NCBI RefSeq assembly: GCF_913775355.1
Contig: NZ_CAJYIU010000041.1
Location: 1,503-65,502, forward strand
Length of the DNA stretch: 64,000 nt
DNA from: an uncultured Aureimonas sp.
GTDB lineage: Bacteria; Pseudomonadota; Alphaproteobacteria; Rhizobiales; Rhizobiaceae
Direction of reading: 5' to 3'
Shown here: in pieces, positions 23,437 through 62,482 of the stretch
Layout of the letters: every line of letters begins with the position of its first letter
How positions within the stretch are numbered: position 1 is the first letter of the stretch
Translations under genes and position numbers: made by a program
Notes under the pieces: generated by a model
The model's input: the letters and a program-made list of their open reading frames with translations, nothing else
The model's database searches: none
Told to the model about the DNA's origin: nothing

Positions 23437-24384
23437 ATGAAACGCATCGTCGCCGGGCTCGCGGCCCTCGCCGTCCTGTCCACCGCCGGTCTCGCGCTCG
23501 CGCAGGACAAGAAGCTCACCATGGCCGTGTCGATCCCGGCCGCCGACCACGGCTGGACGGGCGGCGTCGTCTACCACGCCGAGCGCGAGGCCAAACTCCT
23601 CGAGGAGCGCTATCCCGGCCTCGACATCGTGGTGAAAACCTCGCCCGACGGCGCGTCCCAGGCGAACGCCCTGGAGGACCTGACCGCGCAGGGCATCAAC
23701 GCCCTCGTCACCCTGCCGCACAATTCCGACGAACTGACCGACCCGATCCGGCAGGTGAAGGAGAAGGGCGTCTTCGTCACGGTGGTCGACCGGGCTCTCT
23801 CCGATCCCTCGATCCAGGACCTCTATGTCGCCGGCGACAACCACGGCCTCGGCCGCGTTGCGGGCGAATACATGAAGGAGCGCATGGCGGACGGCGGCGA
23901 CATCGTCGTCATCCGCGGCCTGCCGATCGTCATCGACGAGGAGCGCCAGAAGGGCTTCGACGAAGGGATCGCGGGCTCCAAGGTCAAGATCCTCGACCGC
24001 CAGTTCGGCAACTGGTCGCGCGACGACGCCTTCAAGGTGATGCAGGACTACCTCGCCAAGTATCCCAAGATCGACGCGGTCTGGGCGCAGGACGACGACA
24101 TGGTCGTCGGCATCCTTGAGGCGATCGCCCAGAGCAACCGGTCCGACATCCAGTTCGTGGTCGGCGGCGCCGGCATGAAGGACATGATCAAGAAGGTGCA
24201 GGACGGCGACAAGATGGTTCCGGTCGACGTTCTCTATCCGCCCGCGATGATCGCGACCGCGATGGACCTGACGGCCGCCGGCCTCTTCGACCAGAACCCG
24301 GTGCGCGGCAACTACGTCCTCGACGCGACGCTCGTCACCAAGGACAACGCGAAGGAGTTCTACTACCCCGACTCGCCGTTCTGA
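23437..24384 (+). CDS. sugar ABC transporter substrate-binding protein (RbsB-like)
   Basis: Signal peptide; Peripla_BP_4-like motifs VVDR, WAQDDDM. Confidence 0.9.
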   Translation: MKRIVAGLAALAVLSTAGLALAQDKKLTMAVSIPAADHGWTGGVVYHAEREAKLLEERYPGLDIVVKTSPDGASQANALEDLTAQGINALVTLPHNSDELTDPIRQVKEKGVFVTVVDRALSDPSIQDLYVAGDNHGLGRVAGEYMKERMADGGDIVVIRGLPIVIDEERQKGFDEGIAGSKVKILDRQFGNWSRDDAFKVMQDYLAKYPKIDAVWAQDDDMVVGILEAIAQSNRSDIQFVVGGAGMKDMIKKVQDGDKMVPVDVLYPPAMIATAMDLTAAGLFDQNPVRGNYVLDATLVTKDNAKEFYYPDSPF

Positions 24385-44716: not shown

Positions 44717-45697
44717 ATGAAGACCCTATTGCTGGCCCTCGGCCTTGCCACCGCACTCTCGGCGCCCGTCATGGCGCAGGAGAAGCTGAAGATCGGCGCG
44801 ACCGTCTACGGTCTCAACGCCGAGTTCATGCAGATCTGGACCGCCGCGCTGCAGAAGCATCCGGCCGTGCAGAAGGGCGAGGTCGAGGTGACCGTGTTCG
44901 ACGGCCGCTACGACGCGCTGGTCCAGCAGGAGCAGTTCAACACGATGATCACGCAGAAGTACGATGCGATCATCTTCGTTCCGATGGACATCGAGGCGGG
45001 CGCCGCGCCCGTGCAGGCCGCGGTCGACGCCGGCATCCCGGTCGTCGGCTCGAACGCGCGCGTCAACTCCGATCTTCTCACCTCCTATGTCGGCTCCAAC
45101 GACGTCGAGGCCGGCGAGCTCGAGGGCAAGGCCGTCCTCGACAAGATGGGCTGCAAGGGCAACCTCGTGATCATCGAGGGCCCGATCGGCCAGAGCGGCC
45201 AGATCCAGCGCCTCGAGGGCAACGAGAAGGCGCTCGCCGCCTGCCCCGACGTGAAGGTGCTGGAGAAGCAGACCGGCAACTGGTCGCGCGCCGAGGCCCA
45301 GACGCTGATGGAGAACTGGCTGACCTCGCATCCCGGCCAGATCAACGGCGTGATCGGCCAGAACGACGAGATGGCGCTCGGCGCGATCGAGGCGATCAAG
45401 GCCGCCGGCCTCAACGTCAACGACTTCGCGATCGCCGGCATCGACGGCGTGACCGACGCGATCAACTCGGTGAAGGCCGGCGAGATGGCGTCGATCCTGC
45501 AGGACGCGAACGCGCAGGCCCAGGGCGCGCTCGACGTAGCGATCAAGGCCGTGAAGGCGGACTACCAGCCGCAGTCGCCGATCTGGAACCAGTATCCGTC
45601 GATGAAGTGGGAAGACGGCAAGGCCAAGACCTACCTCGTCCCCTGGACGCCGGTGACGACCGCCAACGCCGACGAGCTCCTGAAGTCGCGCCAGTAG
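44717..45697 (+). CDS. sugar/polyol ABC transporter substrate-binding protein
   Basis: Signal peptide; RbsB-like GQNDEMALG, IAGIDG. Confidence 0.9.
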   Translation: MKTLLLALGLATALSAPVMAQEKLKIGATVYGLNAEFMQIWTAALQKHPAVQKGEVEVTVFDGRYDALVQQEQFNTMITQKYDAIIFVPMDIEAGAAPVQAAVDAGIPVVGSNARVNSDLLTSYVGSNDVEAGELEGKAVLDKMGCKGNLVIIEGPIGQSGQIQRLEGNEKALAACPDVKVLEKQTGNWSRAEAQTLMENWLTSHPGQINGVIGQNDEMALGAIEAIKAAGLNVNDFAIAGIDGVTDAINSVKAGEMASILQDANAQAQGALDVAIKAVKADYQPQSPIWNQYPSMKWEDGKAKTYLVPWTPVTTANADELLKSRQ

Positions 45698-45774: not shown

Positions 45775-46542
45775 GTGAGCGACGCCCCTTCCATCGATCT
45801 CGACTTCTCGCTGGCCGCCAAGGTCGCGCTCGTCACGGGCGGCGGCTCGGGCATCGGCCAGGCGATCGCGCGCGCCCTGAGCCAGAAGGGCGCGCGGGTC
45901 GCGCTTCTCGACAACAACCTCCAGGCCGCCGAGGCGACCGCCGGCGAGCTGGCCGACGCGCGCGCCTTCCGCTGCGATGTCGCCGATCCCGCCTCGGTCG
46001 AGGAGGCCGTCGCGGCGGCCGAAAGCGCGTTCGGCGCGATCGACATCGTGGTCAACAGTGCCGGCATCGTCGCGCTCGCGCCGGCCGAGAGCCTGACGCT
46101 CGACCAGTGGGACCGCACGATCGCGATCAACCTGAAGGGCACGTTCCTCGTCAGCCAGGCCGCCGGAAAGCGCATGATCGCGGCCGGGCGCGGCGGGCGC
46201 ATCGTCAACCTCGCCTCGCAGGCCGGAACGGTCGCGATCGAGGAGCACATCGCCTACTGCGCCTCGAAGTTCGGCGTGATCGGTCTCACCAAGACGCTGG
46301 CGGCCGAATGGGGCCGTCACGGCATCACCGCCAATACGATCTCGCCGACCGTCGTCCTCACCGAACTCGGCAAAGCTGCCTGGGCCGGCGAGAAAGGCGA
46401 GGCTGCCAAGAAGCGCATCCCGACCGGCCGCTTCGCCTATCCGGGCGAGATCGCGGCGGCGGCCGTCTTCCTCGCCTCGGATGCCGCGGCCATGGTCAAC
46501 GGTGCCGACCTCGTCGTCGACGGCGGCTACACCATCCTCTGA
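45775..46542 (+). CDS. SDR oxidoreductase, GolD/DthD (polyol dehydrogenase)-like
   Basis: TGGGSGIG, NSAG, YCASK catalytic motif, SPTVVLTELG; adjacent to dhaK/dhaL. Confidence 0.85.
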   Translation: MSDAPSIDLDFSLAAKVALVTGGGSGIGQAIARALSQKGARVALLDNNLQAAEATAGELADARAFRCDVADPASVEEAVAAAESAFGAIDIVVNSAGIVALAPAESLTLDQWDRTIAINLKGTFLVSQAAGKRMIAAGRGGRIVNLASQAGTVAIEEHIAYCASKFGVIGLTKTLAAEWGRHGITANTISPTVVLTELGKAAWAGEKGEAAKKRIPTGRFAYPGEIAAAAVFLASDAAAMVNGADLVVDGGYTIL

Positions 46543-46586
46543 AGCCCGGCCTTCCAGACCATCCTTTTCACAACGGACCCCGCGCC

Positions 46587-47585
46587 ATGCAGCGTTTCAT
46601 CAACGATCCCGACAATGTGGTGGACGACACCGTCCGCGGCTTCGTGAAGGCCCATCGCGACCTCGTGCGCCTGTCGGAGACGAACCGGCGCGTGGTCGTG
46701 TCGACGAACGCGCCGAAGAGCGGGCGCGTCGGCGTCGTCACCGGCGGCGGCTCCGGCCACGAGCCGGCCTTCATCGGCTACACCGGCAAGGGGCTGGTCG
46801 ACGCGGTGGCGGTGGGCGAACTGTTCTCCTCGCCGACCGCCAAGAGCTTCCATGACGCGATCAAGGAAGCCAGCGGCGGCGCGGGCGTCGTCTGCCTCTA
46901 CGGCAACTATGCCGGCGACAACATGAACGTGAAGATGGCGCAGAAGCTCAGCGCCAAGGACGGCATCGAGGTCGCCGTCGTGGTCGCCAACGACGACGTC
47001 TGCTCGGCCCCGCCGGAGGAGCGCGAGAAGCGCCGCGGCGTCGCCGGCGAGATCTTCATGTGGAAGATCGGCGGCGCCAAGGCGAACGAGGGCGCGAGCC
47101 TCGAGGAGGTGCGCGCCACCGCCCAGAAGGCGATCGACAACTGCCGTTCGATCGGCGTCGGCCTCGGCCCCTGCACCCTGCCGGCCGTCGGCCATCCGAA
47201 CTTCCAGATCGAGCCCGGCACGATGGAGGTCGGCATCGGCCACCACGGCGAGCCGGGCATCCGCGTGGAACCGCTGAAGACCGCCGCCGAGGTGGCGCGC
47301 GACATGGCCAAGATCGTCCTCGACGACCATGCGCTCGCCTCGGGCACCGAAGTCGCGGTCCTGGTCTCCGGCCTCGGCGCGACGCCGCTCAACGAGCTCT
47401 ACATCCTGAACGACACGATCGAGGCCGAGATCGTCGGTCGCGGCCTCTCGGTCTACCGCACCTATGTCGGCAACTACTTCACTTCGCTGGAGATGGTCGG
47501 CGCGACGCTGACGGTGCTCGCGCTCGACGACGAACTGAAGCGCCTTCTCGACGCCGAGGCCCGCGCGCCCGGCTTCCAGGGTTGA
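46587..47585 (+). CDS. dhaK: dihydroxyacetone kinase DhaK (Dak1) subunit
   Basis: MQRFIND, GGGSGHEP, NYAGD, GIGHHGEPG, TSLEM. Confidence 0.92.
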   Translation: MQRFINDPDNVVDDTVRGFVKAHRDLVRLSETNRRVVVSTNAPKSGRVGVVTGGGSGHEPAFIGYTGKGLVDAVAVGELFSSPTAKSFHDAIKEASGGAGVVCLYGNYAGDNMNVKMAQKLSAKDGIEVAVVVANDDVCSAPPEEREKRRGVAGEIFMWKIGGAKANEGASLEEVRATAQKAIDNCRSIGVGLGPCTLPAVGHPNFQIEPGTMEVGIGHHGEPGIRVEPLKTAAEVARDMAKIVLDDHALASGTEVAVLVSGLGATPLNELYILNDTIEAEIVGRGLSVYRTYVGNYFTSLEMVGATLTVLALDDELKRLLDAEARAPGFQG

Positions 47586-47599
47586 GGGAGACCGGACCG

Positions 47600-48241
47600 A
47601 TGCAGAGCTTCCCGAATGCCGGCAGCGGCGCGATCGTCGAGGCGATGGCGGCGCGGATCGTCGAGAACAAGGCCTACCTGTCGGAGATCGACGGCAAGAT
47701 CGGCGACGGCGACCACGGCGTGAACATGGCCAAGGGCTTCGGCATGGCGGCCGAGCGGCTGAAGGGCCGCGACGCGTCGCTGGCAGAGGCCTTCGCGCTT
47801 CTCGGCGAGGTGCTGATGGGCGAGATCGGCGGCTCGATGGGGCCGCTCTACGGCATGACCTTCACCGAGTTCGCGGAAAGCATCGAGGGCCGGGACGCCA
47901 TCGACGCCGCCCTGTTCTCGACCATGCTCCACAAGGGCCTCGAGGGCGTGCAGTCGATCGGCTCGGCCAAGGTCGGCGACAAGACCCTCCTCGACACGTT
48001 CGTGCCGGCGGTCGAGGCGTTCGATGCGGCGACGGCTGAGGGCAAGTCGTTTGCCGAGGCGCTGGACGCGCTGACGGCCGCGGCCGACACGGGGCGCGAC
48101 TCGACGATCGATCTCGTGGCGAAGATCGGCCGGGCGAGCCGTCTCGGCGAGCGCTCGCGCGGCGTGCTCGACGCGGGCGCGACGTCCTGCGCGATGATCC
48201 TCGGCACGCTTGCGGACGGCGCGAAGACCCGGCTCGGCTGA
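47600..48241 (+). CDS. dhaL: dihydroxyacetone kinase DhaL (Dak2) subunit, copy 2
   Basis: IDGKIGDGDHG, GGSMGPLYG, GDKTLLD, GRASRLG, DAGA. Confidence 0.92.
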   Translation: MQSFPNAGSGAIVEAMAARIVENKAYLSEIDGKIGDGDHGVNMAKGFGMAAERLKGRDASLAEAFALLGEVLMGEIGGSMGPLYGMTFTEFAESIEGRDAIDAALFSTMLHKGLEGVQSIGSAKVGDKTLLDTFVPAVEAFDAATAEGKSFAEALDALTAAADTGRDSTIDLVAKIGRASRLGERSRGVLDAGATSCAMILGTLADGAKTRLG

Positions 48242-48271: not shown

Positions 48272-48304
48272 GAGGGGGAGGGGCTGCGGCGCCTCCCCTT
48301 TTTC
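48272..48304 (+). terminator. intrinsic terminator of dha operon
   Basis: ggggagg...cctcccc stem followed by TTTTT. Confidence 0.65.
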
Positions 48305-48339
48305 GTGTCGGGGCTTGGCCGATGATCGTGCCCCAACGC

Positions 48340-48445
48340 AAAACGCCCCGCCGGGGGAGGACCGGCAGGGCGTCATGGGTAAAGCCAGCGTGGGAGGAAC
48401 GCGGGCTTCGATCCGCTTCGGTCGTTGGGAGGAGGATGACCGATG
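48340..48445 (-). ncRNA. cuckoo / alpha-r14-like small RNA with three anti-SD hairpins
   Basis: Minus strand: cggtc-at-CCTCCTCCC-aac-gaccg; agcccgcgt-TCCTCCC-acgctggct; acgccctgccgg-TCCTCCC-ccggcggggcgt-TTT; 5' end may extend to about 48503. Confidence 0.75.
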
Positions 48446-48563
48446 CGAAACTCTCGAACGGTGCGGTCACGTCCCGAAGGGCTGTCCGTCTCGCTCTGTT
48501 GATTGGAATATAAGCGCCTCCCCCGGAATGCTGTAGTGCAAAAAGCGCATAGCTGCATTGCGG

Positions 48564-48580
48564 CATAAGTCTGCGTTATG
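48564..48580. promoter_or_regulatory. LysR-type (T-N11-A) dyad
   Basis: Perfect CATAA-N7-TTATG between the sRNA and the divergent membrane-protein gene. Confidence 0.5.
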
Positions 48581-48693
48581 ACGATCGGTTGATCGAGCCG
48601 CCCGAGCGGGTAGGCGGCTATTCATCATTCCGTCATACGGGATGACAGGCATCCTTACGGTCTCTAGCATGTCGCCGAGACTGAGGGGACACG

Positions 48694-49347
48694 ATGCCAC
48701 ATCTGGAATTTCGAAACGGCTTCGCCAGGCTTCTGGCGGGCGCGGTGGGATTGACCCTTGCGGGCACTCTCGTCGCGGCCTGGATTCTCGGCCTGCCGCT
48801 GGCGGCGCACGAGAACGGACCGCTGGAATGGACGCAGGAAGCCGCGCTTCTGGCTGCTGCGTTGTTCTCGGGCGCGGCGGCGCTCGGCCTGAGGGGCGCC
48901 GAGCGTCTGGCCGCCTATCTCGCGACGCTGCTCTATCTCGTCTTCCTGCTGCGCGAGCTGGAACTGCCGCCGACGGGGCCGGTGACGACTTATCTCGTGT
49001 CGGACGCCTTCCGCTGGCACGAGGCGATCGCGCTCGCCGTCCTCGTCCTGCCGCCCATCGTCGCCGGCCGGCGTCATTGGCGCACCTTCCTGCGCTACGG
49101 GCTCGGCTTTCAGGGCTGGCCGTTCGTGCTGGCGGCGGGCTTCGTCGGCCTCGGCGCCGTGTTCGACGGCGCGCCCTATCTCGGCGGCATCGCCGATCTC
49201 GGCACCTTCCTCGAGGAGACCGCCGAACTTGCCGGCTACGTCGTCCTCGCGACCGTCGCCGGCTGGGTGCTCGCCGGCACTTGCAGCGAGGCGACGACGA
49301 CCCGCGCCGTCGCGCTGCAGACCGGCGAGCCGGCCGTCACTCAGTAG
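48694..49347 (+). CDS. hypothetical integral membrane protein
   Basis: 217 aa, about six hydrophobic segments, ENGPLEWTQE and FLEETAEL motifs. Confidence 0.7.
   Translation: MPHLEFRNGFARLLAGAVGLTLAGTLVAAWILGLPLAAHENGPLEWTQEAALLAAALFSGAAALGLRGAERLAAYLATLLYLVFLLRELELPPTGPVTTYLVSDAFRWHEAIALAVLVLPPIVAGRRHWRTFLRYGLGFQGWPFVLAAGFVGLGAVFDGAPYLGGIADLGTFLEETAELAGYVVLATVAGWVLAGTCSEATTTRAVALQTGEPAVTQ

Positions 49348-60769: not shown

Positions 60770-62482
<1,713 letters not shown>

Follow-up and report, generated by a model that had tools for sequence, protein, structure and literature searches.

The window, which is the whole 64,000-nucleotide stretch of Aureimonas DNA analyzed here, contains an ordinary copy of a known family of small RNAs (sRNAs), the cuckoo/ar14 family, whose relatives include NfeR1 and CcsR. 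Very probably this copy is an independently transcribed sRNA gene and one of three paralogues in its genome, for which a start, expression, targets and mode of action are predicted below. A cmscan search of Rfam 15 matched the locus over the full length of the ar14 model (RF02344, model positions 1-123 of 123) with 70.9 bits and an E value of 8.8e-11, where the gathering score used as cut-off is 58.8 bits. The same match was recovered in the whole-genome search. The initial annotation had named the element cuckoo/alpha-r14-like, and this assignment is correct, given the full-length match above the gathering score, the several copies in the genome and the covariation that backs the three-hairpin fold. 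A literature search found no report of a cuckoo family sRNA for the genus Aureimonas. The annotation itself carries little weight alone, as the family is known and very widespread. The elements of the locus are as follows.

48339-48453, minus strand: ar14/cuckoo sRNA core with three anti-Shine-Dalgarno (anti-SD) hairpins including the terminator, from the Rfam RF02344 match
48410-48451, minus strand: hairpin 1, with the loop CCUCCUCCC at 48427-48435, from RNAfold
48381-48409, minus strand: hairpin 2, with the loop UUCCUCCC and (U)UCCUCCC at 48392-48398, from RNAfold
48340-48374, minus strand: hairpin 3, the intrinsic terminator, with the loop UCCUCCC at 48355-48361, from RNAfold and a terminator scan
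48456-48496, minus strand: predicted 5' leader hairpin without an anti-SD loop, from RNAfold and a covarying stem
48507-48512, minus strand: -10-like hexamer TATATT, conserved in the syntenic loci
48528-48563, minus strand: upstream promoter block CCGCAATGCAGCTATGCGCTTTTTGCACTACAGCAT, a candidate activator site, near-invariant in seven syntenic loci

The minus strand of the core reads GAGUUUCGCAUCGGUCAUCCUCCUCCCAACGACCGAAGCGGAUCGAAGCCCGCGUUCCUCCCACGCUGGCUUUACCCAUGACGCCCUGCCGGUCCUCCCCCGGCGGGGCGUUUUG. Cuckoo RNAs are defined by two to four hairpins with CCUCCUCCC loops (PMC4615179). Three adjacent hairpins with the loop motif are present here, and in the RNAfold structure all three anti-SD motifs are placed in hairpin loops, where they mimic the anti-SD sequence of the ribosome. 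Sequence and folding thus confirm the three minus-strand stem-loops described earlier, which expose CCUCCUCCC, UCCUCCC and UCCUCCC. Loop 1 holds the full 9-mer, and loops 2 and 3 carry just the motif core of 7-8 nt, with the 7-mer UCCUCCC; the motif of hairpin 2 is therefore shorter than the CCUCCUCCC of the family. Such shortened motifs recur in further Aureimonas copies scoring above the ar14 threshold, and the 5-nt shortening of loop 2 is common to the C28 copy of the same genome, Aureimonas sp. Leaf324, A. phyllosphaerae and AU22. Hairpin 3, whose stem-loop spans 48342-48374, has a GC-rich stem of 13 bp followed by UUUU at 48340-48343 and is near-invariant among Aureimonas copies. The terminator scan, which is independent of RNAfold, flagged 48362-48345 on the minus strand. 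The description of the last stem as GC-rich and followed by a U run stands, but the U-tract is short, with four U and then G.

The 171-nt minus-strand stretch folds with a minimum free energy of -70.6 kcal/mol (z = -3.29), a stability matched by only one of 200 shuffles; for the plus strand, z is -1.70. The 7-mer TCCTCCC is not over-represented in the window (15 seen against 12.8 expected). Since the count alone is ordinary, the evidence lies in the arrangement, in which one strand carries three copies of the motif inside 81 nt and every copy falls in a loop. The Rfam covariance model scores this arrangement at E = 8.8e-11.

The fold is further supported by covariation. Thirty Aureimonas ar14 copies were aligned and the alignment was folded. 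The consensus consists of four helices: the outer and inner helices of hairpin 1, hairpin 2 and hairpin 3. Standard pairs occupy 96.0% of the cells in these copies compared with 87.6% in column shuffles, and 12 of the 25 pairs show changes on both sides. Compensatory changes were seen in four of the five pairs of the hairpin 1 inner stem and in six of the seven pairs of hairpin 2. The covariation score was 0.257 against 0.115 in the shuffles, and none of 500 shuffles reached it. When the 3' partner was slid by 1-3 columns as a control, pairing fell to 29-48%. The family definition requires invariant loops together with varying stems (PMC4615179). Across the Aureimonas copies the loops are invariant, and the stems vary while their pairing is kept. 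That the RNA strand is the minus strand is fixed by the U-run together with G-U pairs at columns 6-48 and 56-88.

Three ar14 matches above the threshold were detected in the 4.2-Mb assembly to which the window belongs, namely C11 (74 bits), the window copy (70.9 bits) and C28 (64.4 bits). Matches were found in all 18 congeneric genomes searched (1-9 in each) and in 78 of 81 sampled genera of the GTDB family, 74 of them above the cut-off. Several paralogues per genome and a Rhizobiales/Rhodobacterales range are features of cuckoo RNAs, and both are seen here. A search with the neighboring protein assigns the genome to Aureimonas, and the closest relative is Aureimonas sp. Leaf324, with 85% identity for that protein.

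The C28 paralogue is located at G000:C28:229-343 on the minus strand, 10 nt past the stop of a 47-aa DUF1127 gene (MRFANALRSFRKARETANELNRLSNRELADLGISRSDIPALARQASR), and the module reaches upstream to about 490. It is a module of the CcsR/CcaF1 type. Its hairpins 2 and 3 are near-identical to those of the window copy; one stem base differs in hairpin 3. In some relatives, tandem clusters of two or three ar14 copies stand behind one DUF1127 gene (G001:C97:9121-9493 and G007:C1:2238889-2239131). These clusters resemble the CcsR1-4 cluster of Rhodobacter, but the genome studied here has single copies only. Within one genome, the two classes of loci, DUF1127-linked and orphan (compared in this genome, G006 and G008), are 93-94% identical in two of the three species, and ar14 orthologues of different species are 85-91% identical. 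These values give a weak hint of concerted evolution or gene conversion between the paralogues.

The gene lies in a conserved setting. As the initial annotation noted, it is convergent with the dha operon, which the positions of the neighboring genes bear out: a Dak1 domain protein (dhaK) is encoded at 46107-47585, and the Dak2 protein (dhaL) ends at 48241. The sRNA element is downstream of dhaL, 98 nt from its stop, and dhaL is followed at 48280-48295 by a terminator-like hairpin of its own and then a T-run. The divergent neighbor is a 217-aa ORF at 48694-49347 on the plus strand, for which no match was found in Pfam or NCBIfam. The same arrangement, with ar14 (63.9-88.5 bits) about 240 nt upstream of the 217-aa gene and divergent from it, recurs in six named Aureimonas species, among which the protein differs by 15-40%. 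In front of the ORF there is a conserved palindrome, TGTCAT-N5-ATGACA, at 48631-48647. It overlaps the only sigma-70-like promoter match of the region (48642-48670, plus strand) and is probably the promoter or operator of this uncharacterized, membrane-anchored protein conserved in Aureimonas. Elsewhere in the window, Rfam matched 5_ureB_sRNA at 60924-61211 on the minus strand with 110 bits against a threshold of 40. This match may reflect similarity of urease coding sequences rather than a conserved antisense RNA, if the family matches urease coding sequences generally, as we presume.

Seven intergenic regions, from the window and six other Aureimonas species, were aligned for analysis of the promoter. 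The TATATT at 48507-48512, proposed earlier as a -10 element, is present on the minus strand, and its reading as a -10 is backed by conservation: TAT(A/G)TT or TACATT occupies this position in all seven syntenic loci. A few bases downstream of the hexamer, CA(A/T)C(A/G)GAGC is conserved in the seven loci. The upstream block (48563-48528) has the consensus CCGCAATGCAGC(C/T)ATGCG(C/T)TTTTTGCACTACAGCAT. The sequence TGCACTACNGCA occurs just twice in the 4.2-Mb genome, each time upstream of an ar14 copy. The C11 paralogue and its orthologues share an ATGCAGC...TGCACTAC motif with the window class. GCACTAC is 41 nt upstream of ar14 model position 1 in the C11 class versus 86 nt in the window class. 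TAGTTT in the class C loci and TATATT in the window class are equally far from GCACTAC, and in class C this spacing puts the start at ar14 model position 1. From this equal promoter geometry we infer a transcription start near 48496 (about +/-3), which would give the window class a leader of about 43 nt.

The minus strand yielded no canonical sigma-70 -35/-10 pair in the promoter scan, and inspection by eye revealed no convincing sigma-54, RpoH or EcfG signature in the minus-strand promoter. The upstream region 48497-48570 includes the elements TGCACTACAGCAT and ATGCAGCTATGC. Relative to the predicted start, the conserved block places TGCA-N5-GCAT at about -43 to -31 (center near -37) and ATGCAGCTATGC near -60. 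The promoter of NfeR1 contains an LsrB box, TGCA-N6-GCAT, at -72 to -57 and an NtrC box, TGC-N11-GCA, further upstream (PMC10746234). Boxes of the NfeR1 type were considered for the window copy and rejected, for the half-sites are similar but their spacing and position differ. TGCA-N6-GCAT followed by a -10 had one match only in the genome. The TGCA/GCAT half-sites may thus recall the LsrB box as a lead, not as a match. The family-specific promoter block provides a handle for finding the regulator.

The leader offers information about the origin of the locus. Its predicted terminal stem covaries among six species (GAGCG/CGUUC, GGAG/CUCC, GAGC/GCUC, AGAG/CUCU, GAGCGG/CCGCUC). The syntenic locus of Aureimonas sp. 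ME7 has the conserved promoter block too, and downstream of it come, in order, a hairpin in the 5' UTR, a Shine-Dalgarno site, an ORF of 47 aa and the ar14 core; the ORF is a DUF1127 gene (Pfam, 55.3 bits). The leader interval of the window corresponds to the ME7 interval that holds the 5' UTR and this ORF. In Aureimonas the majority of ar14 copies come immediately after a DUF1127 ORF; one of them is the C28 paralogue, whose linked ORF was also assigned to DUF1127 (Pfam, 52.5 bits). In the CIN1/CcsR arrangement the sRNAs are cut from a DUF1127 mRNA (PMC8034643, PMC4615179). Adjacency to a DUF1127 ORF is seen at the C28 paralogue and at the syntenic ME7 locus; no DUF1127 ORF was found within 400 nt upstream of the window copy. 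Because ME7 holds a DUF1127 gene in the same interval between promoter and sRNA, the window copy is probably a DUF1127-sRNA module of the CcsR type that lost its ORF. Deletion of the ORF on the branch that gave rise to six of the seven species is the simplest reading; the opposite polarity, with the ORF gained in ME7, may instead apply. A cuckoo locus that probably lost DUF1127 and a sister species with the intact arrangement form a natural pair for the role of the DUF1127 partner.

The same stretch can be read in other ways. The plus strand contains GGGAGGAGGATGACCGATG, in which GGGAGGAGG at 48427-48435 could be taken as a strong Shine-Dalgarno site of a small ORF beginning with ATG at 48436 or 48443, and a plus-strand ORF of 63 aa is listed at 48322-48513. 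That the plus strand is the functional one is nevertheless extremely improbable. This Shine-Dalgarno sequence abuts the first ATG without a spacer, neither position holds an ATG in five of the six orthologues (A. flava, SK2 8, A. phyllosphaerae, AU22 and ME7), no antisense ORF of at least 15 aa is common to the orthologues, and the indels of the leader region are not multiples of three. The plus-strand ORFs have no Pfam match, and only the minus strand matches the covariance model and accounts for the G-U pairs and the U-run. The small ORF at 48443, which the initial annotation had named as the case that would speak against the sRNA, was rejected as a candidate, its ATG being found only in the window and in the nearest relative. 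A multi-copy element built of hairpins and situated 98 nt downstream of dhaL might also be a non-functional repeat or a terminator relic, perhaps a bidirectional terminator serving the convergent dha operon. However, the terminator-like hairpin and T-run that dhaL already has, the presence of just three copies, each in a defined context, and the promoter block, unchanged loops and compensatory stem changes kept across species at a syntenic site make this a poor explanation, which we regard as improbable.

It is somewhat less improbable, yet still unlikely, that the RNA works mainly through protein binding, for instance by sequestering DUF1127/CcaF1-like proteins or Hfq or having one of them as its chaperone, instead of pairing with ribosome-binding sites (RBS). 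The CcsR RNAs are bound by the DUF1127 protein CcaF1, which influences their abundance (PMC8034643), the family has a history of linkage to DUF1127 genes, and the present genome keeps at least one DUF1127-ar14 module. On the other side, the invariant features are the single-stranded C/U loops and not the stems, NfeR1 acts through anti-SD seeds on the start regions of its targets (PMC10746234), and the window copy probably lost its DUF1127 partner. The conservation pattern does not favor a mainly protein-binding role.

To look for candidate targets, 3,707 home-made and rather crude gene models, which take in 73% of the genome, were combined with a heuristic rule for signal peptides. GGGAGGA, the exact complement of UCCUCCC, was found in the RBS of 93 of these crude models. 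A signal-peptide-like N-terminus was predicted for 34% of the GGGAGGA models and for 12% of those with plain GGAGG, about a threefold difference (Fisher p about 1e-6). The fraction was 36% for G-GGAGG-A and 31% for G-GGAGG-C; extensions that improve pairing with the 16S tail showed no excess (10% for A-GGAGG, 8% for GGAGG-T). Among 20 GGGAGGA-led signal-peptide proteins scanned, 15 were solute-binding proteins (Peripla_BP_4, Peripla_BP_6, SBP_bac_1, DctP, TctC and NMT1_2). Two gene models of the window, at 23437-24381 and 44717-45697, both on the plus strand, were confirmed by Pfam as solute-binding proteins; their RBS, GGGAGGAAC and GGGAGGAAG, are complementary to loop 2 over 9 and 8 nt, respectively.

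In NfeR1, the three anti-SD loops act redundantly on translation initiation regions, two mRNAs of ABC-transporter periplasmic binding proteins are validated targets, and ntrB is another target (PMC10746234). Targeting of GGAGG-led transporter genes by the window copy is plausible, because GGGAGGA sites are enriched on binding-protein genes and two validated targets of NfeR1 are binding proteins of ABC transporters. The GGGAGGA sites on binding-protein genes could also come from other selection, such as that for high expression or by another regulator. Upstream of ntrC (a match of 682 bits) the ntrB gene was identified, with its ATG 4 nt after the stop of the preceding ORF. Its start region contained no SD-like motif or complement, and the best duplexes with the loops were -6 to -10 kcal/mol. 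It was rejected as a conserved target for want of a pairing site, and the NfeR1-NtrBC loop is probably not conserved here. A search of the genome for long complements of the 160-nt RNA yielded 10-17-mers about as often as chance predicts; most matched stem segments and lay within coding regions, and the result was uninformative. When RNAduplex was used to rank some 3,650 crude start regions for pairing with the loops and their flanking stem bases, stem nucleotides that would be inaccessible dominated the outcome, and the exact loop-complement test replaced this ranking.

These observations and the homology with NfeR1 and CcsR suggest how the gene may act. Transcription would begin near 48496, driven by the family-specific upstream block and the TATATT -10, and would end at the hairpin 3 terminator near 48340. 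The primary RNA of about 157 nt would consist of the leader hairpin and three hairpins with the loops CCUCCUCCC, UUCCUCCC and UCCUCCC, and possible trimming of the leader would leave the canonical RNA of about 115 nt. By homology, the C/U-rich loops would base-pair with Shine-Dalgarno regions that are G-rich, of GGGAGGA(A/G) type, and occlusion of the RBS would lower the translation or stability of a set of mRNAs. The targets would probably be mostly periplasmic solute-binding proteins of ABC, TRAP and TTT transporters, and the three loops may act redundantly. By analogy, the copy most likely dampens the translation of transporter genes. The locus would have descended from a DUF1127-sRNA module of the CcsR/CIN1 type in which the ORF was deleted and the promoter, a 5'-UTR-like hairpin and the sRNA were kept.

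AbcR1 and AbcR2 (ar15, RF02345), found in Agrobacterium, Sinorhizobium and Brucella, are trans-acting sRNAs that use C/U-rich single-stranded motifs to repress mRNAs of ABC-transporter binding proteins at the RBS. Since the same class of mRNA is repressed at the same site, AbcR is a competing explanation for GGGAGGA-type sites on binding-protein genes. AbcR1 and AbcR2 differ from the window copy in fold and family. The ar15 model of Rfam was matched in 28 of 40 other sampled genera of the GTDB family and in none of 21 Aureimonas genomes, the present one included; ar14 was present in all 19 Aureimonas genomes searched for it. Aureimonas may have lost AbcR, or AbcR may have diverged beyond recognition.

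A wider reading that joins these points can be offered tentatively, although it is rather unlikely to hold as a whole. Cuckoo RNAs would be the sole anti-SD riboregulators of the genus, and the RBS of solute-binding proteins (GGGAGGA/C) would have evolved to fit the cuckoo loops and not the 16S tail. Transporter synthesis would then be restrained globally by the three paralogues, and the window locus would be a DUF1127-sRNA operon decaying to a free-standing sRNA gene that keeps the mRNA promoter and the 5'-UTR-like hairpin. The link between GGGAGGA RBS and solute-binding proteins, in a genus without detectable AbcR, provides a simple system for studying target choice among SD-bearing mRNAs.

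Among known systems, CcsR1-4 and ccaF1 (RSP_6037, DUF1127) of Rhodobacter (Cereibacter) sphaeroides form a cuckoo locus of the CIN1 type with the same loop motif as the window copy. The CcsR RNAs originate in the DUF1127 mRNA's 3' UTR, and their arrangement, in which the DUF1127 ORF is followed directly by the sRNA, recurs in the syntenic ME7 locus and the C28 paralogue (PMC8034643). Because the window copy has no DUF1127 ORF, it must be a primary transcript and not a 3'-UTR processing product as in CcsR. CcsR RNAs have two hairpins and form a tandem cluster of four, whereas the window copy has three hairpins and is single; unlike in CcsR, no promoter of the RpoHI/HII type was recognized at the window copy.

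NfeR1 (Smr14C2/SmelC397) of Sinorhizobium meliloti is the type example, representing the three-hairpin HP3 variant of ar14. Several differences separate it from the window copy, in which UCCUCCC is all of the motif that loops 2 and 3 contain, the canonical start is preceded on the 5' side by a predicted leader hairpin of about 43 nt, and the TGCA/GCAT half-sites differ in spacing and position from the LsrB box of NfeR1 (PMC10746234). The start region of ntrB in the present genome also offers no pairing site. The host of NfeR1 is a nodule symbiont, whereas Aureimonas is a plant-surface genus, as the leaf-isolate or 'phyllosphaerae' names of relatives indicate. Both RNAs nevertheless consist of three adjacent anti-SD hairpins with C/U loops, the last of which is the terminator, and both occur as several paralogues per genome in the order Rhizobiales (PMC10746234, PMC4615179). 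By analogy, the likeness likely extends to action on the RBS of mRNAs for transporter binding proteins (PMC10746234).
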